Source: an uncultured Planctomycetota bacterium
GTDB lineage: Bacteria; Planctomycetota; Planctomycetia; Isosphaerales; Isosphaeraceae
Assembly (NCBI GenBank): GCA_963845755.1
Contig: CAWJTV010000018.1
Span: 32,001-96,000, forward strand
Direction of reading: 5' to 3'
DNA length: 64,000 nt
Part shown: piece by piece, positions 43,330 through 57,747 of the stretch
Numbering within the stretch: position 1 is the stretch's first letter
Layout: every line of letters starts with the position of its first letter
Notes under the pieces: model-generated
What the model saw: only the letters and a program-made list of their open reading frames with translations
Databases searched by the model: none
What the model was told of the DNA's origin: nothing
Made by a program: the position numbers and the translations under genes

Positions 43330-43912
43330 ATGACAACCGTGCCCCGAGGAACCGGGTCCTGCCGCCTTGAGCTGGGAGAAGGCCCGACCGAACGCCTCGA
43401 TCTCAAGGCCCGGTCGCTGGAGCCGATGCGGGAGCTTCGTCAAGCCGAAGAAGCCGTCCGGCCAGCGCGTCAAACGTGCCCGGTCGGTCCAGCCCCAAGA
43501 TCAGCCGCGTTCCATCGAGGAACTCCCCCGGCCGCTGATGGCGCACGGCCTCATCACCCGCCTCCCCGATCCCGCGTGGACATCGACGAAGACGACCCGG
43601 GCGATCCGCCTATCCCCATCGTGGGCGAGCCTTCGTCGGAAGCCATCATCCGGGAGCGGCGCTGAAGCGGCGTTGTCGTATTTCGTCGATCCGAGTGCTC
43701 GGATCCGACGCGAGGTTCAGGAAATCCGAACCACCTGGGTTCGCGGCAGCACGGCCACGGCCCGTCCAACGTGATCGACATCGCCCGGCACACCGCCGTC
43801 GAATTCACCGGCCCCGTCGCGTGAGGGCGTAAAGGAAAACGCTCACCCCCCTGCGGCGCATCGTCGATTCTCCACCGCTTCGGCCCGCCTCTCGGTGGTC
43901 GGCATACCGTCG
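43330..43912 (+). pseudogene. Decayed antitoxin plus VapC/PIN toxin pair, toxin 3'-truncated
   Basis: Antitoxin-like end IPIVGEPSSEAIIRERR* at 43665, then YFVDPSARIRREVQEIRTTWVR..VIDIARHTAVEF (PIN pattern YF.DSSAL.KRY..E.GT.WV) with a stop and indels. Confidence 0.55.
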
Positions 43913-44096
43913 AGGCCGCGACGTTTCCCTCGGACGCCCGATGGCTCAGGGAGTCTTCGAACTCGCCTTCGCCCACTTCGAGAAGACGCCGCTCGCCATG
44001 AACGAGGATGAGCCGCTTGATCCACTGGAGGTAGGCAACCCTCGTGCGAATGCTGTAATGCAACCTCCAGACAACTTCACGGACCCGGTCGAGCAA
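43908..44096 (-). pseudogene. intI: Integron integrase N-terminal (SAM-like) fragment; catalytic domain absent
   Basis: LDRVREVVWRLHYSIRTRVAYLQWIKRLILVHGERR..EVGEGEFEDSLSHRASEGNVAAST follows the IntI N-terminus. It is divergent from the cassette array and no tyrosine-recombinase box follows. Confidence 0.85.
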
Positions 44097-44149
44097 GGTG
44101 GGCGTCTTATCTCGTCGCGTTTGGTCTGGATAAACCTTGGAAGGTCTGG

Positions 44150-44178
44150 TTGCAAATGTGGCCTTTCTCGATCATAAT
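44150..44178 (+). promoter_or_regulatory. Candidate cassette promoter Pc
   Basis: TTGCAA-N17-CATAAT about 70 bp upstream of attI, facing the array. Confidence 0.6.
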
Positions 44179-44194
44179 CAATCCCGTGATCCGT

Positions 44195-44200
44195 ATTATA
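44195..44200 (-). promoter_or_regulatory. Candidate PintI -10 box
   Basis: Perfect TATAAT on the minus strand upstream of intI, with no clear -35. Confidence 0.35.
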
Positions 44201-44235
44201 CGCCCATGAGGGCGGGAAAAAAGACGCCCATGCGG

Positions 44236-44256
44236 GCTTCGAAACAATGGTTAGCC
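44236..44256 (+). other. Candidate attI site; crossover G^TTAGCC at 44250/44251
   Basis: CGAAACAATG-GTTAGCC has no attC stem. GTTAGCC is the exact reverse complement of cassette 1 R'' GGCTAAC at 44892. Confidence 0.7.
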
Positions 44257-44286
44257 CGCGCCAGGCGGCAGCAGAGGGGGGCGGAG

Positions 44287-44934
44287 TTGGCGACCTTCAC
44301 CGGATACGACCAGGACCGCATCGTCTTCGAGACGATCGCTGATGAGCGGGCCCCCGGCTTGCTACTCCTGATCCACGGGGCCGTCTTCGCAGGGGCACCT
44401 CTCTACGCCTCGGCACTGTACGGGCTGAAGGGGGCCTCAGCTTGGCTGCTCCTCGTCGTGGGAGTCCTGGCGGGCCTCGCCGAGACCGCCTTCGCCTCGA
44501 TCGTGCTGCTCAAATCCGAGTGGCTCGTCATCGACCTGCGGCGGCGGTCCTATACCGGGCATCGCGGGGTCTTGTTCTGGGGCGACAAGTGGTCCGGGCC
44601 CATCGGCGACTTCCATCATATCCGGCTGAGTGAGGTCCCTCGCGGGCGACATGGCCGTCATCGCCGCCTGGTCGTCGAATGGGTCTGGGCCGAGCCGGGA
44701 CGCCCTCCGTTCCGCGTCACCGGCTGGGGCCGCCTCAAGTCCTTCCGTATCACCCGATGTCCGCAGGGGGGTGACGGTCGAGGATTCCTGCGGGATCTCC
44801 GCGCCGTCGCTGAGGATGTGGGCCTCCCGTTGGTCGTCCCGGAGCGATATGTCGATGGCCTCGGCGTCAACGACCGGGAAGTCGACGGCCCGGCTAACAA
44901 GGCGATGCAGCGGACCCGCTGCGCGGGCCGCTGA
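44287..44934 (+). CDS. Cassette 1: hypothetical membrane protein (reads through its attC)
   Basis: TTG start after a G-rich RBS, two transmembrane helices, stop within attC. Confidence 0.65.
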   Translation: MATFTGYDQDRIVFETIADERAPGLLLLIHGAVFAGAPLYASALYGLKGASAWLLLVVGVLAGLAETAFASIVLLKSEWLVIDLRRRSYTGHRGVLFWGDKWSGPIGDFHHIRLSEVPRGRHGRHRRLVVEWVWAEPGRPPFRVTGWGRLKSFRITRCPQGGDGRGFLRDLRAVAEDVGLPLVVPERYVDGLGVNDREVDGPANKAMQRTRCAGR

Positions 44935-44950
44935 TCTTGCGTCGTTAGGC
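44892..44950 (+). repeat. attC site (59 bp)
   Basis: GGCTAAC..TGCAGCGGACCCGC..GCGGGCCGCTGA..GTTAGGC. Confidence 0.92.
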
Positions 44951-44967
44951 GGCTTACCGGAGGCACT

Positions 44968-45471
44968 ATGAACTACAAGCAAATAGCCTCGCGTCTCACC
45001 GGCATCAGTTGTCCCGTCTTCGGCGTTTCGTGGAATCCCCCGGCCACAGAGGTCGATGTCGCCCAGCGAGTCCTTTCGTTTCTCGAAGACCGCCGTGTAC
45101 TCTACAACGAGTACGAGATGGAGTTGCCTGACCATTGCATGATGTCGGTCATCGACATTCGCCGCTTTCTCACTGACGTTCTTGGCCGCCTTCCCAACAA
45201 GCAAGGGCTTCCGGCCCATCTGCGTATGATGCGTGCAGCTTGTCGTCAGTTCCTGGACAAGAATGGCGGCGAACGATTCCGCGATCACCAACCGCACATG
45301 TTTGGTGGCCCGGAGACGTGGGTTTTTGCCAGCGCACTTGGCGATCTCCGAACCACAATCGGGCTACACGTGGGAATCGTCTGCACCATGTATGGCCTTG
45401 GCGTCGAGGGCGACCTTGCGAAGATACTCCCCCCGCTGCCGAATGACGATAACGAGGAGGCCGATGCCTAA
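44968..45471 (+). CDS. Cassette 2: hypothetical protein (DUF6650-like)
   Basis: GGAGG RBS; IASRLTGISCPVFGVSWNPP..FLEDRRVLY. The stop TAA lies in R''. The family name is recalled, not searched. Confidence 0.75.
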   Translation: MNYKQIASRLTGISCPVFGVSWNPPATEVDVAQRVLSFLEDRRVLYNEYEMELPDHCMMSVIDIRRFLTDVLGRLPNKQGLPAHLRMMRAACRQFLDKNGGERFRDHQPHMFGGPETWVFASALGDLRTTIGLHVGIVCTMYGLGVEGDLAKILPPLPNDDNEEADA

Positions 45472-45525
45472 CAGGCGGTTGCAGCGGACCCGCCTGCGGC
45501 GGGCCGCTGAACCTTTTCGTTAGGC
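45466..45525 (+). repeat. attC site (60 bp)
   Basis: GCCTAAC...GTTAGGC with the conserved stem. Confidence 0.92.
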
Positions 45526-45545
45526 GGCAGTGTGGAGGCGACGCT

Positions 45546-45812
45546 ATGCGGTCGGCCACCCGATCTTCTCTATTCGTGGTCGCGTGGTCGGTCGGGCTGG
45601 CCTCGCGCTACGCGAACCGCGGTGATCCTCAGTGGGCCACGAAGTTGCGGGTGGCGTGCCTGTTCTTCGTCCTCGGAGGAGCCTTGCTCTGGTCGATCCA
45701 GAAGATCTCCAAGCGGCCGTGGCCTTGGTTCGTAGAAGGCATCGCACTACCGTTCGTCGCCGGCGGCTTGATCTACGGGATCGTCGCCGTACGCAACGCG
45801 TTCAGGGGATAG
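45546..45812 (+). CDS. Cassette 3: small membrane protein
   Basis: GGAGG RBS and three hydrophobic segments. Confidence 0.65.
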   Translation: MRSATRSSLFVVAWSVGLASRYANRGDPQWATKLRVACLFFVLGGALLWSIQKISKRPWPWFVEGIALPFVAGGLIYGIVAVRNAFRG

Positions 45813-45816
45813 CTTT

Positions 45817-45874
45817 GTCTAACAATGCGATGCAGCGGACCCGCTGTGCGGGCCGCTGATCTTGGGCGTTAGCC
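45817..45874 (+). repeat. attC site (58 bp)
   Basis: GTCTAAC...GTTAGCC. Confidence 0.92.
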
Positions 45875-45886
45875 AGCGGAGGGCTC

Positions 45887-46169
45887 ATGGCCGACGATCT
45901 TGTGCACCTCCTGCTCGACATCAAGCTCGCCGGCGACGGGTTCGCATCGCCGGACGAGTTTGATCTCCGGGACCGGCTCGTTGAGCGGATCGAGCGACTG
46001 GGCATCGGTGAGGTCGGCGGCTATGGCTCGGGAGTCGGCGGCATGGACATCTCCGTGCTCGTCGCTGATGAAGCTGAAGGTCGGGGGCGGCTGAGTCGAA
46101 CTCATGCAGGAGGTCGCGCCGGATGCTCGCTTCACCATCGAGGTACTTGCAGACGAGGATGACGGCTAA
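45887..46169 (+). CDS. Cassette 4: small acidic hypothetical protein, frameshift near 46090
   Basis: GGAGG RBS; GIGEVGGYGSGVGGMDISV. The alternative frame ends FTIEVLADEDDG* at the R'' TAA. Confidence 0.65.
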
Positions 46170-46224
46170 CGAGGCGATGCAGCGGACCCGCCTGTCGGCG
46201 GGCCGCTGATCTATGGCGTTAGCC
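46164..46224 (+). repeat. attC site (61 bp)
   Basis: GGCTAAC...GTTAGCC. Confidence 0.92.
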
Positions 46225-46234
46225 GGCGTGGGTC

Positions 46235-46564
46235 ATGACACACGATATCGAGGCCGAGTTGACCCTCCTTCCGACCGAGCACGGCGGGCGCCACCTTCCA
46301 GTGTCCTCCGGCTACCGCCCCCAGTTCTATTACAGCGGCCACGACTGGGACGCGGTCCATACATACGTCGATGTCACGGAAGCCCGTCCCGGCGATACCG
46401 TCACCGTCCGGTTGTCCTTCCTTAGCCCGGAAGCGCACGCGGGCAGGATCTTCGCCGGCATGCCGTTCCTCGTGCGCGAGGGTAATCGGGTCGTCGGATA
46501 TGGTCGCGTGACTCGCATCCTTGACTTGGAGGCGGCACATCGACAATCTTCGAAGGAGGGCTAA
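46235..46564 (+). CDS. Cassette 5: stand-alone EF-Tu C-terminal (domain III)-like protein
   Basis: EAELTLL.TEHGGRH.PV.SGYRPQFY..PGD.V....F.VREGNRVVGYG.VT.I parallels EF-Tu domain III. Confidence 0.8.
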   Translation: MTHDIEAELTLLPTEHGGRHLPVSSGYRPQFYYSGHDWDAVHTYVDVTEARPGDTVTVRLSFLSPEAHAGRIFAGMPFLVREGNRVVGYGRVTRILDLEAAHRQSSKEG

Positions 46565-46616
46565 CAAAGCGATGCAGCGGACCCGCTGCGCGGGCCGCTG
46601 AATTTGGGCGTTAGCC
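46559..46616 (+). repeat. attC site (58 bp)
   Basis: GGCTAAC...GTTAGCC. Confidence 0.92.
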
Positions 46617-46641
46617 AGCATTCCGATTGCACGGGGGGGAC

Positions 46642-47005
46642 ATGAGGGCCGATGATGACCCGTACTTCACGGCGACCGACAAGGCCAAGCCGCATCCGCC
46701 CCGCGGCATGGCGCAGCTCGTGGTGCGAATCCCTTGGTGCCTCTCCTGGGTCGCCGTGGCGCTCCTGTCTATGCAGGTGTTCGTCTCGCCGATCATCTAC
46801 CAGTCGCGGCTGGCGACCGGGGCCTATATCATGACGGAGATCGGGGCCGGGGCGGCTCGGTGCCATCTCGGCCTTCGGCGTGCTGGCCATCCGACTGGTG
46901 CGTTCAGGAGGCTCGCCCGATCCGTACACGAGGAGACTGGCTTGGTCGATACTGAGGGGCCTGCTGGTTGTCATCCTCATAATGACGGGGCTCGAGGTCG
47001 CCTGA
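46642..47005 (+). CDS. Cassette 6: membrane protein, frameshift near 46850
   Basis: Hydrophobic segments continue in the shifted frame (LGAISAFGVLAIRL..GLLVVILIMTGLEVA*). Confidence 0.55.
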
Positions 47006-47015
47006 GGGAGGCCCC

Positions 47016-47075
47016 GGCTAACAAGGCGATGCAGCGGACCCCGCTGCGCGGGGCCGCTGATCTGGGGCGTTAGAC
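47016..47075 (+). repeat. attC site (60 bp)
   Basis: GGCTAAC...GTTAGAC. Confidence 0.92.
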
Positions 47076-47084
47076 GGTGGGGCA

Positions 47085-47420
47085 ATGAGCGTCAGCGACG
47101 ATCTTGACCGGTTGTTTCCAGGCCACCGCTCGCCCGAGCGGGTTGCCGATTGGGAGGCGCTCGAGCAGCGCCTTGCCTACGGGCAGTCCGTCACTGGTAC
47201 GGTCGTCGTCAAATCCCCGTTCGGGGCGTGGGTCGACCTCGGCGTCGGTTTCCCTGCCCTGCTGGAGATCATCGTCATTGTGGGCCTGACGCCCGAGAAA
47301 TATCGTGCGGGTGACTGGTGCCCTGTCGGTAGCGAAGTCTCGGCGTTTGTCGGTGGATTCCGCGATGACTCTCATCAGATAGGGCTGTGGCAGGTGCCGG
47401 TCGGCCATGGCCGCGTCTAA
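47085..47420 (+). CDS. Cassette 7: stand-alone S1/OB-fold-like protein
   Basis: GQSVTGTVV...PFGAWVDLGVGFPALL..VGSEVSA.V.....QIGL. The stop lies in R''. Confidence 0.7.
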   Translation: MSVSDDLDRLFPGHRSPERVADWEALEQRLAYGQSVTGTVVVKSPFGAWVDLGVGFPALLEIIVIVGLTPEKYRAGDWCPVGSEVSAFVGGFRDDSHQIGLWQVPVGHGRV

Positions 47421-47473
47421 CTCCGCGTTGCAGTGGACCCGCCTGCGGCGGGCCGCTGAACTTTCCGTTAGGC
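47415..47473 (+). repeat. attC site (59 bp)
   Basis: GTCTAAC (complements the preceding GTTAGAC)...GTTAGGC. Confidence 0.92.
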
Positions 47474-47492
47474 TGCGGAGGCGCAGCGGGTT

Positions 47493-47810
47493 GTGGAGTG
47501 GCTCGTGCCATGGCATTCTGTCGCTGATGATCCAGCCTAGGTGGAGGGCATGGTACGTGAGTTACTCCGCGAGCTTGCTGAAGGTCACCCGCTCTACCGC
47601 CTCCCGGTGCGGACGTGGGGTCGCAGGCAGGACCGCGACGACGTGCTGTTCGCCATAGAAGATGGTAGCGGGCGCGTCGCGGTCGTCCATCTGGCGTGGA
47701 CTTGGAATCCACCCGATCCTCCGCCCTGGCCATGGACCATGCTGTATCGAAGCTTCGATGCGTGGATCGTCGAGGGTGTGCGCCGCGATTACGACGAGTT
47801 GCATGCCTAA
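47493..47810 (+). CDS. Cassette 8: hypothetical protein with an in-frame TAG at 47538 (or a start at ATG 47550)
   Basis: ELAEGHPLY..RRQDRDDVLF...VAVVHLAW..PWP. The stop lies in R''. Confidence 0.65.
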
Positions 47811-47862
47811 CCTGCGGTGGCAGCGGACCCGCTCCGCGGGCCGCCGATCTTGGGCGTGAGGT
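47805..47862 (+). repeat. attC site (58 bp), R' degenerate (GTGAGGT)
   Basis: GCCTAAC plus the conserved stem. Confidence 0.85.
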
Positions 47863-47917
47863 GGCGACAGGAGACACTCGGATTGTGGCTCGCGCGGGCG
47901 TGATGTACGCTGAGTGA

Positions 47918-48212
47918 ATGAGCCCGTCGATTCGAGAGGTCAACCCTGGCGAATTGCGGCTCCCACCGAGTCGGGCCAGCGGGGCCGACCCATGGAAGCT
48001 CCACCAGCAGATCCGACAATTTGGAGCGTCGAGGAACGGGATGCCCCCGATCCTTGTACGAGGATCCGGACGGCATCTTGGAGATCTCCGACGGGGTCAC
48101 CCGCGCCACCCGGATCGCCAAGCTGGCACCAGACCAGACAGTCCCGATCGTGGTGATCGGTCAGTATCGACGAAGCCGGGCAGGCTCCCCTTGCGTGAGG
48201 GACCGGTTATGA
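47918..48212 (+). CDS. Cassette 9a: small ParB/Srx-N-like protein, frameshift near 48058
   Basis: MPPILV-YEDPDGILEISDGVTRATRI..TVPIVV resembles the ParB-N PI.V...I.DG..R pattern. Confidence 0.55.
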
Positions 48213-48469
48213 GCGAGAGCGATACCCGTGTGGAATTGTTCGCCGCCCTCCAGGAATTGTCCGAGGTCATCCCCGAGATGCGGTCCGGCCAGCTCGTGGC
48301 GGCGGTCGGGGAGCTGTGCGCCGATCTCCACGGGCGCGGCCTCTGGGACGCCGCCGACGGCGAGTTGCTCAAGGCCGTATGGCTGTTCCGCCGCAACTAT
48401 GAGGCGGCTCTTACCCCGAGCCGGGACGATACCTTCTATGAACCCGCTGAAGTCAAGCCCCCCGACTGA
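48209..48469 (+). CDS. Cassette 9b: small helical protein whose original stop was displaced by the IS
   Basis: ATGA overlap with 9a; PEMRSGQLV..LWDAADGELL. The empty site restores GAT ACC TAA. Confidence 0.7.
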   Translation: MSESDTRVELFAALQELSEVIPEMRSGQLVAAVGELCADLHGRGLWDAADGELLKAVWLFRRNYEAALTPSRDDTFYEPAEVKPPD

Positions 48470-48800
48470 TTTTTTCCGGGCGTCCCGCGGGGCGCGGACA
48501 GCGATCGCTCCGAGTCCGACAGCGTATGTCCTGGCTCCCCGTTTGCGGGGAGCCAGGACACACGCTGTCTCTCGTTCTCCAGACAACGCCGGTGGTCCTG
48601 CGATCGACACTCTCCTTGTCCTTCTCGAAGAACTCCCGAGACCGCGGCTGGTGGCTTCGTCACGCGCGTCGCGCCTGCCAGGAGGCCGCGACCACCTTCT
48701 CTCCGTGTGGATCCTCACTCAAGGGACCGAGCACCCGTTACTCTGTTCGTCCGCGGACGACTCCGAAGCCAGGTGTGGGGACAAACCCATCTAACTCACG
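48435..48800 (-). ncRNA. Candidate bridge/seek RNA region of IS110 copy 1
   Basis: About 360 nt downstream of the transposase, conserved in copy 2, with strong hairpins and the junction-matching 7-mers GTTAGAT and AGAAGGT. Confidence 0.5.
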
Positions 48801-49950
48801 GTCGGCTGCCGCCGACCAGGCGCTTTCCGCCCCCTCGGGGACCTCGCCCTGCTCCAGGTATCGCCACAGCGCGATCAACAACTTGCGGGCCAGGGCCACA
48901 ATCCCCACCTTGCGCCGCCGCGTTGCCCTCGCCGAACCGACGCTGATACCACTGGCTCAAGGCGCTGTGGAGCTGCCAGTGCAGCCAGCCCCAGGCGATC
49001 TCCACCGCCATCCACCGCAGACGACAGTTCCCCGCCTTGCTGATCCCTTGCTCGCGCTGACCGTCGCCACTGGCGTACGGCGTCGGGGCCAAACCGGCGA
49101 GGCTCGCCAGCTCGCGGCGGTTCTGGATCTGCCGCCAGCCGAAGAACTCGCGGACGAACCGCGTCGCGCTCATCGGACCGATCGCCTTGAGGTTCAGCAG
49201 CAGCCGCGGCTTCTCGACGTCGGCCGTCGCGTCGTCGCGGAACGCTCGCCGCTGGGCGTTCTCCAGGTCGCGCACCTGGCGGTCCACCAGTGTCCATCGC
49301 TTGAACTCGCGGCGGATGCGGGCACTCAGCTCGGCCGGGACCGGCCTGCCGTCCCATTGGCGAAGTTGGCCGAGGCGTTCCGGCAACGGGTCATCGACCA
49401 CGACGTCAAGGCCGAGGTTGGCGAGGAGTCCCTTGATGCGATTGGAGTGCTCGGTGCGCTGGCCCTTGACGGCGATCAGCTCGCGGTGGGGCTGACGGCG
49501 GTCCTCATCGTCGGGGGTGGGGATGCGGACGACGCTCCAGAGCTTGTGCTCGCCGCCGTGATAACGGATCAACATCGTCAGGAGCTTGCCGACGTCGAGC
49601 CGATCGCTCTTGGCGCGACGCGCGCGGCGGTTGACCTCGATGCTGGCGGCGTCAACGACGAGGTTCGTGACTGCGTGATGTTGGAGATCGCGATGGAGCC
49701 AGAAGCCGTCGCGGCCGGCCTCGTAGCAGGAGACGAGGGGGACATCGCCGGAAAGGGCGAAGCGTTGCCTGGCGAGGAGGATCTCGCGCTGGAGACCTTC
49801 GAGATCGCGAGCGGGGATGGTGCGGAGCCGCGGCTTCTGGGCCATGGCGGTGGTGAAGGCGAGGTTCAAGGACGTCCAGCCGAGGTCGAAGGCGAGGAAG
49901 AGCGTGTTCGAGGCGGTGGTGGTAGGATGAAGGTCGTGGGTCGCTGACAT
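48796..49950 (-). CDS. IS110 DEDD recombinase/transposase, frameshift near 48915
   Basis: AFDLG, YEAG, AKSDRLD, GLAPTPYASG, GISKAGN.RLR. The tail KVGIVALARKLLIALWR is in a shifted frame. Confidence 0.92.
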   Translation of the reverse strand: MSATHDLHPTTTASNTLFLAFDLGWTSLNLAFTTAMAQKPRLRTIPARDLEGLQREILLARQRFALSGDVPLVSCYEAGRDGFWLHRDLQHHAVTNLVVDAASIEVNRRARRAKSDRLDVGKLLTMLIRYHGGEHKLWSVVRIPTPDDEDRRQPHRELIAVKGQRTEHSNRIKGLLANLGLDVVVDDPLPERLGQLRQWDGRPVPAELSARIRREFKRWTLVDRQVRDLENAQRRAFRDDATADVEKPRLLLNLKAIGPMSATRFVREFFGWRQIQNRRELASLAGLAPTPYASGDGQREQGISKAGNCRLRWMAVEIAWGWLHWQLHSALSQWYQRRFGEGNAAAQGGDCGPGPQVVDRAVAIPGAGRGPRGGGKRLVGGSRP

Positions 49951-50050
49951 GGTAAGACTCCGAGGTTGAGAGGGATTTGGTGAAAGACCTCTTCTGAGGA
50001 GCTTACCGTCGGCGGCTCACCGTTTTCAGCCCGGTCGCTCCGGACATAGT

Positions 50051-50100
50051 ATCTAACCAGGCGATGCAGCGGACCCGGCCCGCTGAGCTTGACGTTAGGC
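50051..50100 (+). repeat. attC site (50 bp, short loop); R'' ATCTAAC rebuilt by the IS end
   Basis: ATCTAAC..TGCAGCGGACCCGGCCCGCTGA..GTTAGGC. Confidence 0.8.
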
Positions 50101-50449: not shown

Positions 50450-50457
50450 GGCTTCCA

Positions 50458-50721: not shown

Positions 50722-51038
50722 TGCTGGTCCCGTTCCCCTTCTCGGACCTGTCGCAGTCCAAGTTGCGGCCGGCAGTCTGCCTGGCCCCCGCCGGCCGGGG
50801 CGACTGGGTGCTCTGCCAGATCACGAGTAGTCCCTACGGCGATCCCTCGGCGGTGCCGTTGGACGCAACGGACTTCACCACGGGCGGGCTGCTGGTGGCG
50901 AGTTTCGCCCGGCCGGGTAAGCTCTTCACCGCCAGCGTCGGCCTCATGGTGAAATCGGTCGGCATTCTTTCTCCCGCTGCGCTGGCCCGGGTACTTTCGG
51001 TGGTCGCTGCACTCTTCCAGCCACCTTCGGGGCCCTGA
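50694..51038 (+). CDS. Cassette 11b: PemK/MazF-family endoribonuclease toxin
   Basis: GEVVLVPFPFSDLSQSKLRPAV..CQITS..S.ARPGKLFT; GGAGGAGG RBS. Confidence 0.88.
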   Translation: MVVPSAGEVVLVPFPFSDLSQSKLRPAVCLAPAGRGDWVLCQITSSPYGDPSAVPLDATDFTTGGLLVASFARPGKLFTASVGLMVKSVGILSPAALARVLSVVAALFQPPSGP

Positions 51039-51039
51039 C

Positions 51040-51098
51040 GCCTAACGAGGCGATCCAGCGGACCCGCTGGCGCGGGCCGCTGATCTTTAACGTTAGGA
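51040..51098 (+). repeat. attC site (59 bp)
   Basis: GCCTAAC...GTTAGGA. Confidence 0.92.
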
Positions 51099-51117
51099 AG
51101 CAAGAAAAGGGGCTGGC

Positions 51118-51453
51118 ATGAAAGCCTTCGTGGTGTCTCTCAACGGCCAACCGTTCGTGACAGCCGGGGTCGGTGATGATGGCGTCCTCGCCACAGGGCT
51201 CAGCTGGGTCGGTGGCTCCCCACCACGTCCCGTCGAGGGCCGGCTAGATTTTCGCGTGGGCGGCGTTGACGGGCGCACTGGGGAGCACATCAATTGGTCG
51301 GTCCCCGAGATCGGCGTTGGCGACGAGATCACGATCAAGGTCATCGAGACGGCTCAGGTGACGCCTGAAGACGAGCGCTACCGCTTCGACGAGTCGAACT
51401 GCCATATCGGCGTCAGGGGCGAAGAGACCGAGGCGGGAGAAGAGGAGCCTTGA
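51118..51453 (+). CDS. Cassette 12: hypothetical protein
   Basis: MKAFVVSLNG..AGVGDDGVL..VGDEITIKVIE; fills the cassette. Confidence 0.75.
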   Translation: MKAFVVSLNGQPFVTAGVGDDGVLATGLSWVGGSPPRPVEGRLDFRVGGVDGRTGEHINWSVPEIGVGDEITIKVIETAQVTPEDERYRFDESNCHIGVRGEETEAGEEEP

Positions 51454-51456
51454 GTT

Positions 51457-53024
51457 CTTCTATGAAACCGCTGAAGTCAAGCCCCCCGACTGATTCTTTC
51501 CGGGCGCCCCGCGGGCGCGGACAGCGATCGCTCCGAGTCCGACAGCGTGTGTCCTGGCTCCCCGCAAACGGGGAGCCAGGACACACGCTGTTTCTCGTTC
51601 TCCAGGCAACGCCGGTGGTCCTGCGATCGGCACACTCCTTCCTCTTGCGAAAGAACTCCCGGGACCGCGGCTGGTGGCTTCGTCACGCGCGTCGCGCCTG
51701 CCAGGAGGCCACGACCACCTTCTCTCCGTGTCGGTCCTCATTCCAGGGACCGAGCACCCGTTACTCTGTTCGTCCGCGGACAACTCCGAAGCCAGGTGTG
51801 GGGACAAACCCATCTAACTCACGGTCGGCTGCCGCCGACCAGGCGCTTTCCGCCCCCTCGGGGACCTCGCCCTGTTCCAGGTATCGCCACAGCGCGATCA
51901 ATAACTTGCGGGCCAGGGCCACAATCTCCACCTTCGCGCCGCGCGTTGCCCTCGCCGAACCGACGCTGATACCACTGGCTCAAGGCGCTGTGGGGCTGCC
52001 AGTGCAGCCAGCCCCAGGCGATCTCCACCGCCATCCACCGCAGACGACAGTTCCCCGCCTTGCTGATCCCTTGCTCGCGCTGACTGTCGCCACAGGCGCA
52101 CGGCGTCGAGGCCAAGCCGGCGAGGCTCGCCAGCTCGCGGCGGTTCTGGATCTGCCGCCAGCCGAAGAACTCGCGGACGAACCGCGTCGCGCTCATCGGA
52201 CCGATCGCCTTGAGGTTCAGCAGCAGCCGCAGCTTCTCGACGTCGGCCGTCGCGTCGTCGCGGAAGGCACGCCGCTGGGCGTTCTCCAGGTCGCGCGCCT
52301 GGCGGTCCACCAAAGTCCAGCGGTCGAACTCGCGGCGGATGCGGGCACTCAGCTCGGCCGGGACCGGCCTCCCATCCCATTGGCGAAGTTGGCCGAGGCG
52401 TTCCGGCAACGGGTCATCGGCCTCGACGTCAAGGCCGAGGTTGGCGAGCAGGCCTTTGATGCGATGGGAGTGCTCGGTGCGCTGACCCTTGAGGGCGATC
52501 AGCTCGCGATGGGGCTGGCGGCGATCTCCGTCGTCGGGCGTGGGGATGCAGACGATGCTCCAGAGCTTGTGCTCGCCGCCGTGATAACGGATCAACATCG
52601 TCAGGAGCTTGCCGACGTCGAGCCGATCGCTCTTGGCGCGGCGGGCGCGGCGATTGCCCTCGATGCTGGCGTCGTCGACGACGCAGTTGGTGACGGCGTG
52701 GTGTTGGAGATCGCGATGGAGCCAGAAGCCGTCGCGGCCGGCCTCGTGGCCGGAGAGCACGGGGGCGTCGCCGGGGAGGGCGAAGCGGTCTCGGGCGCAG
52801 AGGATCTCGCGCTGAAGGGCGTCGAGATCGCGAGCGGGGATGGTGCGGAGCCGCGGCTTCTGGGCCATGGCGGTGGTGAAGGCGAGGTTCCAGGACGTCC
52901 AGCCGAGGTCGAAGGCGAGGTCGAGCGTGTTCGAGGCGGCGGTGGTAGGATGAAGGTCGTGGGTCGCTGACATGGTAAAACTCCGAGGTTGAGAGGGATT
53001 TGGCGAAAGACCTCTTCTGAGGAG
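51457..53024 (-). mobile_element. IS110-family element, copy 2 (diverged, upstream end truncated)
   Basis: Collinear with copy 1 from CTTCTATG (51457) to CTTCTGAGGAG (53024); lacks about 50 bp of that end. Confidence 0.88.
51819..52973 (-). pseudogene. IS110 recombinase, probably inactive
   Basis: Same motifs as copy 1, but PYASG has become PCACG (conserved Ser lost), with a frameshift near 51935. Confidence 0.8.
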
Positions 53025-53076
53025 GTTAGAGCGCCCCACCGTTGGGTGGCACCCACTCGAAGCCTGCTCCCGAAGA

Positions 53077-53115
53077 ACCCCCTGAACCCCCCCTGCGAAG
53101 GGGGGGTTCGGGGGT
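53077..53115. repeat. REP-like hairpin
   Basis: ACCCCCTGAACCCCCCC-TGCGA-AGGGGGGGTTCGGGGGT; relatives at 57928-58012. Confidence 0.65.
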
Positions 53116-53449
53116 GAGTTCGCAGCGCCTCAGGGCGTGCGCAACGCAAGAGTTAAGCGCTCTAGCTGGCGGCCCGCGGAGGTGGCTGCGTGGGCGGGTT
53201 GCTGGTGGAGCTCAACTTCAGGACCATAGTCGAGGTCTTCAAGGCAGCCTGGCGACATGACTTCCCCAATTCCCCGTGAGGTCCCCGGCGCGCAGATGTC
53301 ATTGAGGTCGCCTCGCAGCCAATGCCCTCACATCCCCTCTGGGACCGCGAGATCGACGGCCGTTAGTTGTCCCGGGGTTCGACGGTCGTTATTGTAACGG
53401 GGAGAAGTCGCCTCTCACGAAGGGAGGTGACGCTCGAGAGACTGCGAAA

Positions 53450-53854
53450 ATGCATTTGGAGTTTGTCGTAGTCGGTGTTCCCATCTCAAACCAGTCGGCA
53501 GGAACTGCCGCCCTTCAAGCCTGGCGGACGGCGGTAGAGACCGAAGTAAAGAAGAACTGGACTGGTACTCCACTGACCGGCAGGCTGAAGGCGGTTATCA
53601 TCAACTTTCACACGGGTGATAAGCCATCCCTCGACCTCGACAACATGACGAAACCGATACTGGACGTCATGCAGCAAATCGTCTACGACGATGACCGCCA
53701 GGTTCGGCAGGCCGAACTCACACACGTCCGGATCGACGCGCCGTTCGTCTTCGTCGGGGCCTCGAAACTTATCGTGGCCGCCGTGCAAGCCGGTAATGAG
53801 TTTGTGTACGTGAGAATAGAGGACCCGATCGATCCATTCCCATTACCGACGTGA
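53450..53854 (+). CDS. Cassette gene: RusA-family Holliday junction resolvase-like protein
   Basis: EFVVVGVPIS.Q, DLDNMTKPILDVM, VYDDDRQV. Confidence 0.85.
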   Translation: MHLEFVVVGVPISNQSAGTAALQAWRTAVETEVKKNWTGTPLTGRLKAVIINFHTGDKPSLDLDNMTKPILDVMQQIVYDDDRQVRQAELTHVRIDAPFVFVGASKLIVAAVQAGNEFVYVRIEDPIDPFPLPT

Positions 53855-53858
53855 TACC

Positions 53859-54542
53859 ATGGATTACGAACAAGAGTTGAATCGTTTGGCAGACATTTAT
53901 CGAGGTCACGGCTACGACGTGACCGTCCGGCCTGGCCCGGATCAATTGCCTCCGTTCGCCAGAGATTTCAGGGTGGAAATCCTCGGCCGCCGCGGAGCCG
54001 AGGGTGTGCTCGTTGCAGTCAGGAGAAACCGCGACGAAGTTGCAGCCGACAGCGACATGCAGCGGTATGCTGAGACCACGGGAGCTCAGCCTGGGTGGCG
54101 ATTCGATTTCGCCATTCTCGAGTCGGAGCAGCCGAATGCCAGAGAGGTGCGGGGAGCGAAGGAGCTTTCGCAGGACGACATCAACAAGTCACTTGAACAG
54201 GCACGGGAACTCAGCCGAATGGGCTTCACAGGGTTTGCGGTCGTCGCAGCTTGGGCCACGTTGGAAGCGGCCATGCGGATGCGGCTCCGGGCTCTCGGAC
54301 AGGAAGCGGGTTGGGGAAGCATCCCCAGGCAGATGACAAGAGAACTCTATTCCGCAGGCGCGTTATCCCCAGACGAATTCCGTCGAATTGAGAGCGCGTC
54401 CCAGCTCAGGAACCAGATCGTTCACGGCTTCGCGTCGCAGCCCGCTGAGCCAGGCGATTCTGAGGCTGCGATGGTCGAAGTTCTGAGCGGCGTCGCTCAT
54501 CGCCTCGTTAATGAATCCCAACCCGCAGCGCAATCCACTTGA
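53859..54542 (+). CDS. Cassette gene: REase_AHJR-like N-domain plus HEPN-like C-domain
   Basis: LADIYRGHGYDV..P...LPPF..PGWRFD, then AWATLEAAMR...LRNQIVHG (Rx4H). Confidence 0.65.
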   Translation: MDYEQELNRLADIYRGHGYDVTVRPGPDQLPPFARDFRVEILGRRGAEGVLVAVRRNRDEVAADSDMQRYAETTGAQPGWRFDFAILESEQPNAREVRGAKELSQDDINKSLEQARELSRMGFTGFAVVAAWATLEAAMRMRLRALGQEAGWGSIPRQMTRELYSAGALSPDEFRRIESASQLRNQIVHGFASQPAEPGDSEAAMVEVLSGVAHRLVNESQPAAQST

Positions 54543-54556
54543 GCCGACTACCTATC

Positions 54557-54614
54557 GGCTAACCCGCGGTTGCAGCGGACCCGCTGCGCGGGCCGCTGAA
54601 CCTGGGCGTTAGCC
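54557..54614 (+). repeat. attC site (58 bp)
   Basis: GGCTAAC...GTTAGCC. Confidence 0.92.
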
Positions 54615-54631
54615 GGCGGGGGAACGTAATC

Positions 54632-54946
54632 ATGAAAGCGATCTCGTCCGTGCTGCTCATCCTGGCAGTCGCCTGCTCCGGCACGGGGCAAGAGCCGGAG
54701 GACGGCTACGTCCCGGACGATGGATTCGTCCCAAGCAAGGAAGTTGCTATCAAGATTGCCGTCGCGGTCTGGGAGCCGATCTACGGCGCGGAGAAAATCG
54801 CCAAGGAGAAGCCCTACCGTGCGACCCTGGCCGACGGCGTTTGGACCGTCGAGGGATCGCTATCGAAGGGCAGCAACGGCGGTGTGGCCCTCGCCAGGAT
54901 CGCGAAGAAGGACGGCCGCATCCTTCGCGTCACCCACGGCAAGTGA
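54632..54946 (+). CDS. Cassette gene: YbbC/YhhH / NTF2-fold immunity-like lipoprotein
   Basis: Lipobox-like LAVAC; VPSKEVAIKIA.AVW.PIYG..I..EKPY..VW.VEGSL..GG....I.K.DG.IL...HGK. Confidence 0.8.
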   Translation: MKAISSVLLILAVACSGTGQEPEDGYVPDDGFVPSKEVAIKIAVAVWEPIYGAEKIAKEKPYRATLADGVWTVEGSLSKGSNGGVALARIAKKDGRILRVTHGK

Positions 54947-54975
54947 CTCTGAACCGGGGCGCCATCGAGGGTCGC

Positions 54976-55032
54976 GCCTAGCCTTGCGATGCAGCGGACC
55001 CGCTTTGCGGGCCGCTGAGCTTTGTGTGAGGT
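54976..55032 (+). repeat. attC site (57 bp), both cores degenerate
   Basis: GCCTAGC, conserved stem, GTGAGGT. Confidence 0.8.
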
Positions 55033-55038
55033 GGCGTA

Positions 55039-55386
55039 GTGAGAGCGTCCACGCGACAACGTGACCATGGACTCCCGCTCGTCCTTCGTTGGTCGCGGGA
55101 CGTCCTGGGAGCGTTCGTCACTCTGGTAGCCCTCGTGTTCACGACCCGGAACTGGGGGACGCCAGCGGCGGCAGTCAACTGCGCCCTCGCTGTCGCCGGG
55201 GCCGTCGGGCTCCGGCTGCGATCGTGGCCGGTCCTCGCAGCCTTGTCTGGTGCGTATCTCGGCGCCATCGCGGGGACCTCCATGGGGGACTCGGCGGTAA
55301 ACGCGCCGGTTCATGGTCTGTTGCTCGCCATCTGCGGGACGGTTGTGGGATATGGCTTTCAAATGATGGAGCGGGGACCGGCCTAA
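55039..55386 (+). CDS. Cassette gene: small membrane protein
   Basis: Four hydrophobic segments; stop in R''. Confidence 0.6.
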   Translation: MRASTRQRDHGLPLVLRWSRDVLGAFVTLVALVFTTRNWGTPAAAVNCALAVAGAVGLRLRSWPVLAALSGAYLGAIAGTSMGDSAVNAPVHGLLLAICGTVVGYGFQMMERGPA

Positions 55387-55439
55387 CGAAGCATGGCAGC
55401 AGCCCCACTGCGCGGGGCCGCTGATCCTGGGCGTTAGGC
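55381..55439 (+). repeat. attC site (59 bp)
   Basis: GCCTAAC...GTTAGGC. Confidence 0.88.
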
Positions 55440-55461
55440 GGCGGAAGGGGAGGGTTTGGGG

Positions 55462-56100
55462 ATGCGTTCGTTCTGGGGCGAGTTCGTTCGCGCGCGTGCC
55501 TTCTGGGTGAGCTACGTCAGCGCGGGGGTGGATTTCGTCGGTTGCGGCAGCCTCCAGGCTGACCAACGGCTGCTCTGGGAGGAGCCGACGTGCGGGGCGA
55601 CGCTGATGTTCCGCTTCCCCGACTCCCACCGGCTGCGCCTGGATGTTGCGGCGGGGGAGCATAAGCTGCAACTGCTGCACCCCGACTACGACGAGCCGCA
55701 ACTTGTTGGCACGATGGACTGTCACCAGATGAGCGATCTCTTCCGGTGGGACGAGTTCCGGGCGGTCACCCGGCACCTGGCCACGACTTCCGGCCCGACG
55801 TCGGCGCACGAACTGTTGCTGAGTTTCTACGTCGCCGTCACCGAGGATTGTGCGGATGAGCATGCGGTGGTGCTGCGGCGGACCCTGGAAGCGTCGGAGG
55901 TATTTGCCGTCCCGGAAATCGAGCATATCTTGGCCTATACGCGTCGGGTTGCGGTGCGTCGGGATTTCCGATGGGTCCACACCCCGGGGTTGGGGTGGCT
56001 GGCAGAGGGCCGCGACACCTACTGCATGCGGCACACGCGGGGTGAGCTCGACTTCGATCGGTTCAGCCGGTTCCTGGGAGCGCTGGCCAGCGACGCGTGA
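55462..56100 (+). CDS. Cassette gene: hypothetical protein
   Basis: GGGAGG RBS; fills the cassette; stop in R''. Confidence 0.7.
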   Translation: MRSFWGEFVRARAFWVSYVSAGVDFVGCGSLQADQRLLWEEPTCGATLMFRFPDSHRLRLDVAAGEHKLQLLHPDYDEPQLVGTMDCHQMSDLFRWDEFRAVTRHLATTSGPTSAHELLLSFYVAVTEDCADEHAVVLRRTLEASEVFAVPEIEHILAYTRRVAVRRDFRWVHTPGLGWLAEGRDTYCMRHTRGELDFDRFSRFLGALASDA

Positions 56101-56194
56101 CCTGCGCTGCAACGGAACCGGACCGCGGCTGCGGCTTTCTGGTAGAATCGAGGCAGATGCTCGGCGGGCCGGGCTGTTGAGCTTGTTGTTACGC
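56095..56194 (+). repeat. Long-type attC (100 bp), degenerate
   Basis: GCGTGAC..TGCAACGG..CCGGACCGC...GCGGGCCGG.CTGTTGA..GTTACGC. Confidence 0.65.
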
Positions 56195-56256
56195 GGCGGC
56201 CAATCTACCGACAGTGGTGATGTCGCGGGGGACCACGCCTGCAGTCGGGGGCTACT

Positions 56257-56604
56257 ATGCAAGAATTCGGGCCCTACTTCCTTCTTGCCTCAATGCTCGG
56301 TTCGCTCCTCGCTCCTCTCCTCATCGGAATCTTACCGAGGGAGGCAGCCAGGCGTGTGGTGGTATGGGCTCTCCGCATCTTGGTCCCGACCTTCCTCGTA
56401 AGTTTCATCTCGCTCGCGGCACAAGGGGATCGAGGCTTCCTCAGCAACTCGCAATCCGTGCTAACGGGCTCCGTCTTCTTGATCCTGTCCGTAGGCCTCG
56501 GCTACTTCGTATCATGGCTGCGTCACACATTGTCGAGCCGAGGTATTCAAGGCTCCCGGGGTGGGAAAATCAAGGCGGGACTATTGGACGATGAATTGGC
56601 CTGA
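56257..56604 (+). CDS. Cassette gene: small membrane protein
   Basis: Three transmembrane segments; stop in GCCTGAC. Confidence 0.65.
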   Translation: MQEFGPYFLLASMLGSLLAPLLIGILPREAARRVVVWALRILVPTFLVSFISLAAQGDRGFLSNSQSVLTGSVFLILSVGLGYFVSWLRHTLSSRGIQGSRGGKIKAGLLDDELA

Positions 56605-56645
56605 CCTGCGGTTGCAGCGGGCCGCTGCAACCTTCACGATTGGAG
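56599..56645 (+). repeat. Collapsed attC remnant
   Basis: GCCTGAC followed by the perfect palindrome GGTTGCAGCGG-G-CCGCTGCAACC; no GTT core. Confidence 0.55.
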
Positions 56646-56654
56646 GCTCTCTCG

Positions 56655-56918
56655 ATGGTCCGTCAACTCTTCACTGTCGAGGATGTCTTCACGATCCGTC
56701 AGCGTGGCACCATCCTCGTGCCGGGAATCGTGCCCGAGGGCGATGAGTGGTTCCATATCGGCGACGGCTTGTGCCTGCGCCGCCCCGATGGGTCGGAAGT
56801 TCGGACGGCGATCGATGGCATCGACTTCTTCAACGTCAGCGAGCACGGTGCTTACGCGATCGTGGTGCCCTTACCTGCATCCGATGTGCCACTTGGCATC
56901 GAGGTCTGGTCGGCATAG
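56655..56918 (+). CDS. Cassette gene: stand-alone EF-Tu domain II-like beta-barrel
   Basis: FTVEDVFTIRQRGTILV.G......IGD.L......RTAIDGIDFF parallels EF-Tu IEDVFSI.GRGTV..G..VG...T.VTG.EMF. GGAGG RBS. Confidence 0.65.
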   Translation: MVRQLFTVEDVFTIRQRGTILVPGIVPEGDEWFHIGDGLCLRRPDGSEVRTAIDGIDFFNVSEHGAYAIVVPLPASDVPLGIEVWSA

Positions 56919-56924
56919 GCTGGA

Positions 56925-56985
56925 GCCCAACAATTGGTTGCAGCCGACGCGCCTGTCGGCGGGCCGCTGAACCTTCGCGTTAGGC
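56925..56985 (+). repeat. attC site (61 bp)
   Basis: GCCCAAC...GTTAGGC. Confidence 0.88.
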
Positions 56986-57036
56986 GGTGGGAGTCTTGGA
57001 GCATCCTTGAGGCGCTGGTGTCGATCGAGGGGTCAT

Positions 57037-57579
57037 ATGCCTTCATCCGTCCGCGGCCTGCTGGGGGCTGTCCCCGTCGTGATGATCGGTTGCCTCGCCA
57101 TCCGGGGCGCTGCTCTGCCGGCTCCCTGGGTCATCACGACCGCGGCGTTCTTGTTCGGCCTCCCCGCATTACTCAGTCCCTCGGCTCGGCCCGAGTGGCG
57201 ATCCGCCTTGATTGCGTTCGCCTGGGCCGGCTCGCTTTACCTCGTGCTGTGCTTCGGCCCCGGCCTCGACCTGTGCGAACTCGAGTACCTCCCCTCCACG
57301 GCGGCACTCAATCGCCTCTTCCCGGTGATATTCACAGAAGGCTATCTCCAAGACCTGGCGGTCGAGCGTGAAGGCTGCACTTGCGACCGATGTGTCACTG
57401 ATGTCCGGGACGGCCTCCGTAGCGGATTTCTCCAGGCAGGCCACATCGTCACCGCGTTGCTCGCGGCGGCACTCTCTGGGCTGGCAGCTTGGGCGCTGTC
57501 ATCGTATCGTGGGGTGGGCGTACGAAAAGAGGCCCGGCCTAACCCACGGTTGCAGCGGACCCCTGCCGCGGGCCGCTGA
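57037..57579 (+). CDS. Cassette gene: membrane protein with CxCxxC (reads through attC)
   Basis: Four hydrophobic segments and GCTCDRC. Confidence 0.6.
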   Translation: MPSSVRGLLGAVPVVMIGCLAIRGAALPAPWVITTAAFLFGLPALLSPSARPEWRSALIAFAWAGSLYLVLCFGPGLDLCELEYLPSTAALNRLFPVIFTEGYLQDLAVEREGCTCDRCVTDVRDGLRSGFLQAGHIVTALLAAALSGLAAWALSSYRGVGVRKEARPNPRLQRTPAAGR

Positions 57580-57594
57580 CCTCGAGCATTAGGC
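57537..57594 (+). repeat. Last clear attC (58 bp), R' mutated to ATTAGGC
   Basis: GCCTAAC plus the conserved stem. Confidence 0.82.
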
Positions 57595-57747
57595 CGACCG
57601 TCGCTGGGCCGTGGTGTTGCGTCCGCCTGACGCCACCGTTACGCTGGGGCCGCGTGAGTCGGTGGGCGACGGCGGCCTAACCATCGGGCCAGGCCCAATA
57701 CCTTTGAATTAGCGTTAAGACTAAGAAAAGTCGAGATTTGCAAATAT

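Follow-up and report, generated by a model that had tools for sequence, protein, structure and literature searches.

The closest described systems are integrons and the clusters of gene cassettes that lack an integrase of their own. In IntegronFinder terms, a complete integron carries a functional integrase gene (intI) beside its attC sites, whereas a cluster of attC sites lacking an integron integrase (CALIN) holds at least two attC sites spaced by 4 kb or less and has no functional IntI in its vicinity. In the sections of Cury et al. 2016 (PMC4889954) that treat these classes, integrons count as sedentary when they have more than 19 attC sites or are present in 100% of a species' genomes, intI pseudogenes are reported near 15 of 279 CALINs, and genomes with more than one IntI are described together with the proposal that CALIN cassettes are mobilized in trans. 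Three papers report integrons in Planctomycetes (PMC4889954, PMC8618304, PMC9668308), and a Planctomycetes-specific attC covariance model is outlined by Ghaly, Tetu and Gillings 2021 (PMC8352920). We analyzed a 64-kb window (the whole stretch under study, C18:32001-96000 of the genome assembly; coordinates below are window positions) from an uncultured planctomycete, in which an initial annotation had recognized a sedentary integron with about 20 cassettes and a homogeneous attC family. The region is very probably an integron gene-cassette array with a Pc-like promoter, an attI site, 16 attC-bounded units and plus-strand open reading frames (ORFs), whose own integrase is reduced to a 76-codon stub. 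This kind of element is already well described, in that planctomycete integrons, CALINs with intI pseudogenes and the idea of mobilization in trans have all been published. The phylum, first annotated as little studied for integrons, is so only in relative terms, going by the published accounts of planctomycete integrons (PMC4889954, PMC8618304) and of the attC model (PMC8352920).

Read by eye, the segment from 42000 to 59500 consisted of small plus-strand ORFs, each followed by GNCTAAC-N7-TGCAGCGGACCCGC-loop-GCGGGCCGCTGA-N7-9-GTTAGNC. The 14-nt core TGCAGCGGACCCGC, with up to two mismatches, occurred 16 times in the window against 1.67 copies expected, a number reached in 0 of 100 shuffles, and 14 of these copies lay on the plus strand between 44906 and 57564. 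A strict regular expression (RYYYAAC...GTTRRRY) failed to find most sites, the second core base frequently being G, and was therefore dropped in favor of a covariance model, R1, trained on 70 repeat copies that all came from contigs other than the window's to avoid circularity. Run over the window with its filters off, R1 returned 15 strong matches (40.9-81.2 bits, E 4.9e-22 to 1.2e-9), all on the plus strand within 44892-57594 and starting at 44892, 45466, 45817, 46164, 46559, 47016, 47415, 47805, 50051, 51040, 54557, 54976, 55381, 56925, and 57537. A weak sixteenth match lay on the same strand at 56599-56644 (18.9 bits, E 0.0072). The list of 44 matches contained 28 more, which either echoed the same sites on the minus strand at lower scores or had E >= 0.18; the best one outside the array had E 0.35.

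Fourteen of the strong matches measured 57-61 nt and one 50 nt, and this independent model thereby returned the same count of 57-61-bp sites as the initial annotation. Among the short, long, and decayed variants annotated besides, the short site at 50051 stood (45.1 bits), but the long candidate at 56092-56198, with attC-like boxes by eye, gave a fold z-score of 0.10 and no R1 match, and the decayed candidates at 50338-50402 and 57670-57722 had z-scores of -1.53 and -0.60 with no R1 support. Counted as attC-bounded units, the cassettes number 16, and the figure of about 20 is an upper estimate. An Rfam search of the whole window at the gathering threshold gave 0 matches, which is uninformative on attC either way. 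The GC content of the array (0.63-0.66) showed no contrast with the flanks.

The structure of the sites was examined in the R1 training set and in folds of the bottom strand. Across the 22 modeled pairs of the 70 training sites, 89.8% of the cells were paired, compared with 26-44% when the 3' partner was slid by one to three columns, and compensatory changes were found next to the L stem (columns 14/49, AU 33 and UA 23; columns 13/50, GC 55 and AU 5). The bottom-strand DNA folded into a 7-bp R'/R'' stem, an unpaired spacer of 4-5 nt, an L stem with two bulges, and a loop of 3-4 nt; the bulges were 6 bp apart, with T inside and C or G outside. Fold z-scores, based on mononucleotide shuffles, ranged from -3.2 to -6.7 in 11 of the 16 window sites. 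Cores of the R'' (RYYYAAC) and R' (GTTRRRY) types, here GNCTAAC and GTTAGNC, enclose an imperfect palindrome, and the folded bottom strand displays the extrahelical bases, spacer, and variable loop of an attC. The sites follow the plan of minimal attC. Unpaired G and A on the top strand, as annotated initially, were present in 67 of 100 genome sites, the remainder being C+A (10), T+A (3), C/G (1), G/C (1), and 18 outside the regular expression.

In characterized attC sites the outer bottom-strand bulge is usually G; this is also the case in the aadA7 attC, which is 60 bp long and has the same minimal layout. With this aadA7-type short attC of mobile cassettes the present sites share the 7-bp cores, a spacer of ~7 nt, the L stem with two bulges 6 bp apart, a tiny loop, and T as the inner bottom-strand bulge, but they differ in the outer bulge of that strand, which in most copies is C (top-strand G in 67/100, C in 10/100). 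In the outline given for Planctomycetes-type attC (PMC8352920), the likeness lies in chromosomal sites homogeneous enough for a taxon-specific model.

The description of the attC as lineage-specific could be kept in part. It applies to the inner stem CCCGC/GCGGG and the 3-4 nt loop, but the R and L boxes are generic: GCCTAAC-N7-TGCAGCGGAC...CCGCTGA-N8-GTTAGGC recurs by intI in loci labelled Proteobacteria, Acidobacteriota, and Verrucomicrobiota. At a threshold of E <= 1e-5, the attC family turned up in 19 of the 24 further genomes from the same bacterial family and in 7 of 16 that belong to the class but to different families. Beside intI, R1 matched in 33 of 80 loci from many phyla (E <= 0.001), with 57-80 bits in the four best-matching planctomycete loci and 25-58 bits in other loci. 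In three of the loci (L069, L053, and L074, labelled Acidobacteriota/Thermoanaerobaculia), the attC matches lay downstream of intI on the same strand, which is the inverted intI orientation and not the divergent one.

On the left, the array is bordered by an intI remnant on the minus strand (43908-44135), comprising 76 codons from the N-terminus of an integron integrase; its start codon is lost, and homology stops at 43908. The remnant matched the integron integrase model TIGR02249 (315 positions) at 43908-44096 over positions 1-63 with 41.6 bits, against a cut-off of 265. Its best NCBIfam matches were two integron-integrase models (TIGR02249 and PRK15417), its Pfam match was PF13495, and its DNA was 84% identical to the 5' end of an intact intI on contig C3. 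Over the genome (14.27 Mb in 49 contigs, 87.9% completeness, 3.3% contamination), TIGR02249 found a single full intI, C3:161245-162186 (484.9 bits, no stops), and elsewhere fragments, including that of the window. Residues 16-327 of the C3 IntI align to VchIntIA (IntI4 of the Vibrio cholerae superintegron, PDB 2A3V) with E 4.9e-103, the IntI-specific segment included. The C3 protein keeps the residues aligned to W219, P232, H240, and H241, which are said, after MacDonald et al. 2006, to hold the bulged bases in VchIntIA, but has R at the W157 position, and its gene lies on another contig rather than by the window array.

Between the remnant and the first cassette we located a Pc-like promoter and the attI site. 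The putative promoter, a consensus match of the form TTGCAA-17-CATAAT at 44150-44178 on the plus strand, reads into the array and is the sole plus-strand promoter-like match upstream of it; its hexamers and spacing are unchanged in all five attI platforms of the genome (C18, C47, C41, C3, and C39). The attI site (44200-44256, plus strand) contains the direct repeats ACGCCCATGNGGGC at 44200-44213 and 44224-44237, which are largely conserved across the platforms, and the crossover core GTTAGCC at 44250-44256. A 21-nt segment, GGGCTTCGAAACAATGGTTAG, is identical in the five platforms, which agree up to ...AATGGTTAG and diverge directly after GTTAG; homology of the window with the C47, C41, and C3 platforms stops at 44254-44256, in keeping with a first cassette joined between G and TT beside intI. 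Judged from these alignments, the divergence is the expected footprint of different first cassettes at a conserved attI. The platforms differ pairwise by 2-31%, all their first cassettes are different, and the C39 intI region is only ~69% identical overall. On C41 and C47 intI is truncated at the same point as on C18, and on C39 it is a pseudogene with a stop codon. The breakpoint 43907/43908 is common to C18, C47, and C41; C47 is 97.7% identical over 42083-44254, and the DNA beyond the breakpoint differs in C41.

Genome-wide, 150 of ~16000 first-look candidates were scored with R1, and the site total is a lower bound from which weak sites may be missing; 104 matches minus four reverse-strand echoes left 100 distinct sites. 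In the genome, at least 100 attC sites are distributed over six arrays, a few minor clusters, and some isolated positions, with at least 27 sites on C39 and 4 more in a second cluster there, 23 on C41, 15 on C18 (the window), 10 on C47, 8 each on C3 and C34, 2 on C1, and 1 each on C5, C29, and C38. Co-oriented clusters of two or more (C3, C18, two on C39, C41, C47, C34, and C1) account for 97 of the 100, and on C3, C18, C39, C41, and C47 the array stands next to intI or its remnant, in the divergent orientation that is canonical. The genome search proposed with the initial annotation yielded both further attC clusters and an intact intI, and the repeats do not occur genome-wide without relation to genes or intI. 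Mean pairwise identity of the sites was 77.7% within the window and 77.0% genome-wide; the arrays of the genome draw on one attC pool.

The variable base of the cores indicates how cassettes were joined. The first cassette, which comes after the attI core GTTAGCC, ends in GGCTAAC, and cassette-by-cassette matching of opening and closing cores had been annotated initially. With adjacent site pairs more than 3 kb apart left out and 20000 shuffles, R'' agreed with the upstream R' in 55 of 82 pairs genome-wide and with the R' of its own site in 38 of 82 (shuffle mean 29.2; 0/20000 as high), which upholds the matching at genome scale. In the window, R'' agreed with the upstream R' in 10 of 13 adjacent pairs (shuffle mean 5.5; 127/20000 shuffles as high), but with its own-site R' in 9 of 13, and the window alone cannot tell the two apart.

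Several window cassettes recur elsewhere in the genome. Cassette 3 is 97% identical to C3:160727-161091, the first cassette after the attI of the intact C3 integron, and to C39:445765-446181, with homology beginning exactly at GTTAGGC. Cassette 4 is 98% identical to C39:451597-452011, and cassette 6 matches C39:461041-461559 at 85% identity and, at 86%, an array of the congener G001 (G001:C4:239674-240160), the only same-genus genome compared. Over 396 bp, cassette 7 (47070-47467) shows 100% identity to C41:27541-27936; the DNA on either side is unrelated, and the right-hand break lies inside R', directly after GTTA. Cassette 15 has a match of 95% identity that runs into the end of contig C34. 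At the inspected junctions, those of cassettes 3, 4, and 7, the breaks lay at or next to R'. Cassettes 3, 4, 6, 7, and 15 thus recur in other contexts at 85-100% identity, and by the inspected breaks at or next to R' cassettes have moved as units between arrays. Across species, only cassettes 6 (G001, 86%) and 7 (G010:C9, 84%) had homologues among the 25 relatives searched, both within attC clusters. Among public sequencing runs, a search for RNA data with this genome found none; three soil-metagenome DNA runs (small shares, 0.07-0.12) gave only short, low-depth contigs in which no excision or circle joints were seen; some contigs were identical to single cassettes, and one spans attI and cassette 1.

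The window array combines 16 attC sites, with a largest gap of 3458 bp (51098-54557), and no working integrase in cis; it is therefore a CALIN with an intI pseudogene in IntegronFinder terms, not a complete integron. The word integron in the initial annotation suits the cassette array, with its attC structure, attI, intI remnant, and cassette mobility, but does not extend to a functional integrase in cis, of which 76 codons remain. Compared with the CALINs and sedentary integrons in the pertinent sections of Cury et al. 2016 (PMC4889954), the locus has the same co-oriented attC array, promoterless small ORFs, intI pseudogene beside the array, intact IntI elsewhere, and insertion sequences (ISs) inside, but differs from the CALINs there in that five attI platforms occur in one genome, three of them with the same truncated intI.

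The label sedentary was not borne out. The 15-16 sites fall below the rule of more than 19 as it is worded in Cury et al. 2016, and the term is further unsupported because the congener's flanks lie on different contigs without attC nearby. In G001 the left flank of the window maps to C16 and the right flank to C10 and C8; no attC was found in ~15 kb of sequence past the match to the left flank, nor in the ~8 kb to each side of the match to the right flank, and the synteny search supplied no orthologous array for comparison. G001 also has attC matches on several contigs.

Mechanistically, the bottom strand of each attC would fold into the standard recombination hairpin (R'/R'' stem, spacer, bulged L stem, and loop) and be cut between G and TT by an IntI-type tyrosine recombinase; cassettes would be excised as circles by attC x attC recombination and inserted at attI. 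The single intact IntI of C3 may service the window array in trans, and Pc may drive the proximal cassettes. We tentatively propose, at somewhat less than an even chance, a distributed integron in which one C3 IntI serves five attI platforms and ~100 cassettes over a 14-Mb genome, three of the platforms deriving from one already-truncated platform. If so, attI and Pc would be invariant at the platforms without an integrase because they continue to function in cassette capture and expression, and cassettes would shuttle among the arrays, as suggested by the 100% identical cassette of C18 and C41 and by the first cassette of C3, which is the third of the window.

Several points weigh against this proposal or against the assignment beneath it. 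The array has no working integrase in cis. Present-day recombination is putative, and the shared cassettes of 85-98% identity may be left over from earlier activity. Segmental duplication could account for the spread of the arrays, and collapsed or mixed strains may underlie some of the seemingly paralogous arrays, given 49 contigs, 87.9% completeness, and 3.3% contamination. Most outer bottom-strand bulges are C, against the usual G of characterized sites, and core matching in the window by itself is ambiguous. Finally, the intI breakpoint is one and the same in C18, C41, and C47, but past it C41 has different DNA, for which we found no explanation.

An alternative is a fossil array, which we regard as rather unlikely: the cassettes would have been assembled by a now-dead integrase, and several arrays would be segmental duplications of an inactivated platform that then drifted. 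Consistent with this, intI is truncated at the same point in the window, C41, and C47 and is a pseudogene with a stop on C39, cores or stems are decayed at 47805, 54976, 55381, and 56599, IS copies and a dispersed repeat interrupt the array, and an antitoxin-like ORF is apparently frameshifted. However, an intact intI is present on C3, attI and Pc are invariant in five platforms even though the C39 intI region is so divergent, and the first cassettes differ at every platform exactly after GTTAG. The cassette shared by two arrays at 100% identity over 396 bp, with different neighbors in each, points to a recent move at the level of the unit, not to an old duplication.

An assembly artefact, in which a single integron appears as several because the assembly combined two or more strains or collapsed repeats, is improbable. 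The fragmentation, completeness, and contamination of the assembly leave room for it, as do the C47, C34, and C39 arrays, which reach contig ends, but the C18 and C41 arrays lie in unique flanking DNA on both sides, the platforms differ by 2-31% with all first cassettes different, and the congener also has attC on several contigs; the identity of the window's own array would in any case be unaffected. That the sites are merely repetitive extragenic palindromic (REP)-like palindromes or transcription terminators at gene ends, with no link to integrons, is scarcely credible: they are GC-rich hairpins just past stop codons, but none of the 8 terminator-like matches in the array (shuffle mean 8.2) falls on a model-supported attC, 97 of 100 copies stand in co-oriented clusters, five of these by intI or a remnant, RYYYAAC/GTTRRRY-type cores flank the hairpin with a variable base that tracks the upstream site, and R1 finds arrays beside intI in other phyla.

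The finding leaves the understanding of integrons as such unchanged, the noteworthy part being the arrangement of multiple platforms with a single integrase. The locus is a well-resolved integron example outside Proteobacteria, from a soil planctomycete with a very large genome, several arrays, and one integrase. Comparison of the arrays within this genome gives direct sequence evidence of cassette movement as units between arrays, attI and the promoter stay conserved where the neighboring integrase is dead, and the idea that integrase-less arrays are serviced in trans becomes testable in one organism.

The 16 units comprise 12 simple cassettes (341-694 bp, each with one plus-strand ORF) and four compound ones, and in simple cassettes the stop codon of the ORF often lies within the TAA of R''. 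No promoter-like site was found within any window attC, and the cassettes look promoterless and co-oriented. With the two IS transposases excluded, 6 of the 23 ORFs scanned within 44137-57579 had a Pfam family, which agrees with the initial description of the cargo as mostly uncharacterized; NCBIfam added nothing new on the cassette ORFs beyond partial EF-Tu and S1-like matches.

The sites and ORFs described here are all on the plus strand. Cassette 1 (44251-44944; ORF 44287-44934, no family) is closed by attC 1 at 44892-44950 (59 nt; 69.2 bits, E 2.5e-18). Cassette 2 (ORF 44968-45471) encodes a DUF6650 protein (PF20355, E 1.9e-15) and ends in attC 2 at 45466-45525 (60 nt, 78.1 bits). The ORFs of cassettes 3 (45546-45812, 88 aa) and 4 (45887-46162, 91 aa) belong to no family and precede attC 3 at 45817-45874 (58 nt, 76.5 bits) and attC 4 at 46164-46224 (61 nt, 81.2 bits). 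The ORF of cassette 5 (46235-46564) resembles a stand-alone EF-Tu domain 3 (PF03143, E 6.8e-11), EF-Tu models matching over their C-terminal ~90 positions only; attC 5 lies at 46559-46616 (58 nt, 75.7 bits). Cassette 6 (46611-47069), without a family, is followed by attC 6 at 47016-47075 (60 nt, 70.7 bits), and cassette 7 (ORF 47085-47420), with a weak S1-like domain, by attC 7 at 47415-47473 (59 nt, 70.3 bits). For cassette 8 (ORF 47541-47810), attC 8 at 47805-47862 (58 nt, 55.5 bits) has a decayed R' (GTGAGGT). Compound unit 9, made up of an ORF (47918-48469) and an IS, is closed by the short attC 9 at 50051-50100 (50 nt; 45.1 bits, E 6.3e-11), from which the inner stem is deleted.

Unit 10 carries a toxin-antitoxin-like pair (50503-51038) in which a small, apparently frameshifted upstream ORF precedes a PemK/MazF-like toxin (50667-51038; PF02452, E 8.4e-07), followed by attC 10 at 51040-51098 (59 nt, 71.3 bits), whose outer bulge is C on the top strand and hence G on the bottom. 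The frameshift, near 50572 in the toxin-upstream ORF (50503-50700), was read by eye, and a soil-metagenome contig is without one base there. Unit 11 has, besides an IS, cargo at 53450-54542 consisting of a RusA-like resolvase (53450-53854; PF05866, E 1.4e-10) and a protein of AHJR-like nuclease fold (53859-54542; PF18743, E 7.4e-17), with attC 11 at 54557-54614 (58 nt, 74.4 bits). Cassette 12 encodes an NTF2-fold immunity protein (54632-54946; PF15631, E 2.4e-21) and ends in attC 12 at 54976-55032 (57 nt, 53.3 bits), which has decayed cores; attC 13 at 55381-55439 (59 nt; 40.9 bits, E 1.2e-09), after the cassette 13 ORF (55039-55386), has a divergent L stem. Compound unit 14 (ORFs 55456-56100 and 56257-56604) is closed by the weak, decayed attC 14 at 56599-56644 (46 nt). 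Cassette 15 (ORF 56640-56918) and cassette 16 (ORF 57007-57579) end in attC 15 at 56925-56985 (61 nt, 61.0 bits) and in the last supported site, attC 16 at 57537-57594 (58 nt, 49.7 bits), where R' is ATTAGGC. Just past this site, a repeat of ~250 bp (57691-57953) with copies on C13, C41, C20, and C15 (77-87% identity) marks the right edge of the array. In the C41 array (loci L003 and L006), a 445-aa frame at C41:17824-18642 matched the integron-integrase model in two pieces (3-180 and 215-309), skipping the IntI-specific insert region, and looks like an Xer-like recombinase among the cassettes.

Elements that target attC are known among IS1111-type ISs, which have a non-coding region downstream of the transposase gene that specifies a seekRNA; ISKpn4 and ISPst6 of the IS1111-attC group (Tetu and Holmes 2008, Post and Hall 2009) have one end of attC as their target, as cited in PMC11187229. 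The window contains two IS110-family elements, both on the minus strand. Copy 1, in unit 9 (48433-50050), has a transposase gene at 48796-49950 with a 363-nt non-coding region 3' of it; the product matched PF02371 and, over positions 5-312 of 343, the IS110-family transposase model NF033542 (139 bits, cut-off 140). Its insertion point immediately adjoins the R'' box of attC 9, the junction reading ...CATAGT and then ATCTAAC. Copy 2, in unit 11 (51457-53028), is 93.5% identical to copy 1, scores 113.5 bits against NF033542, below the cut-off, and has its transposase-upstream end cut off. This end is replaced by a 137-bp dispersed repeat (53028-53164; fold z-score -4.43, ends GTTAGAGCGC/GCGCTCTAGC), with copies on C11 and C9. 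Both window copies are without 164 bp (at 48822-48825 and 51845-51848) that the C39 and C47 copies have. The loss removes the last ~30 positions of the transposase model, of which the window copies reach 312-313 of 343, whereas one C47 copy is full length (161.8 bits); to judge by their sequences, both window copies are probably defective.

All eight copies or fragments of this IS that the genome contains sit within attC arrays or next to a solitary attC. All six that keep the transposase-upstream end abut an R'' box with the same junction, and their transposase genes are always opposite to the cassettes. The window elements are IS1111-attC-like, sharing with that group, as far as PMC11187229 characterizes it, an IS110-family DEDD transposase, a downstream non-coding region, here of 363 nt, and one-sided insertion in one orientation at attC. 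They differ from it in the planctomycete host and in the window copies being short of 164 bp; by eye, an imperfect inverted repeat of ~12 bp lies near both ends, a candidate for the subterminal inverted repeats of 11-13 bp, with 7/3-bp extensions, expected in the group. A k-mer comparison of the non-coding region with the attC flank as guide and target gave a longest exact match of 6 nt, against a shuffle mean of 7.0. With these copies, attC-targeting IS110-family elements are extended to Planctomycetota.

The genes flanking the array encode cytochrome b, 4-alpha-glucanotransferase, pectate lyase, and a PSCyt2/PSD1 plus DUF1501 pair, and the neighborhood looks chromosomal and of planctomycete type. 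The nearest IntI relatives come from a metagenome-assembled genome (MAG) with the label Isosphaeraceae, at 82%, and from three of the four MAGs with the label Planctomycetota, at 72-73%; the remaining two loci in the 70-73% range carry the labels Competibacteraceae and Planctomycetota, and loci labelled Proteobacteria, Terriglobia, and others follow at 56-69%. The planctomycete host assigned initially is borne out by the PSCyt2/PSD1 and DUF1501 genes and by these nearest relatives, which have the same attC family.

A multi-copy gene family is represented to the left of the array at 41215-43256 on the minus strand, with further copies on C28, C5, C11, C15, C39, C41, and C47. No Pfam or NCBIfam match was found for this family, and the window copy is frameshifted. 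The members (535-859 aa) keep the N-terminal ~350 residues (~90% DNA identity), which start ...RPDRAEINRRNAQKSTGPRTPEGKNRSRFNAVKHG..., and vary in their C-terminal parts; three copies, on C18, C41, and C47, adjoin truncated intI remnants. To the right of the array, a repeat of ~130 bp (window ~60990-61130) has ~40 copies across G001, mostly 83-95% identical, and looks like a miniature inverted-repeat transposable element (MITE) or a REP element.

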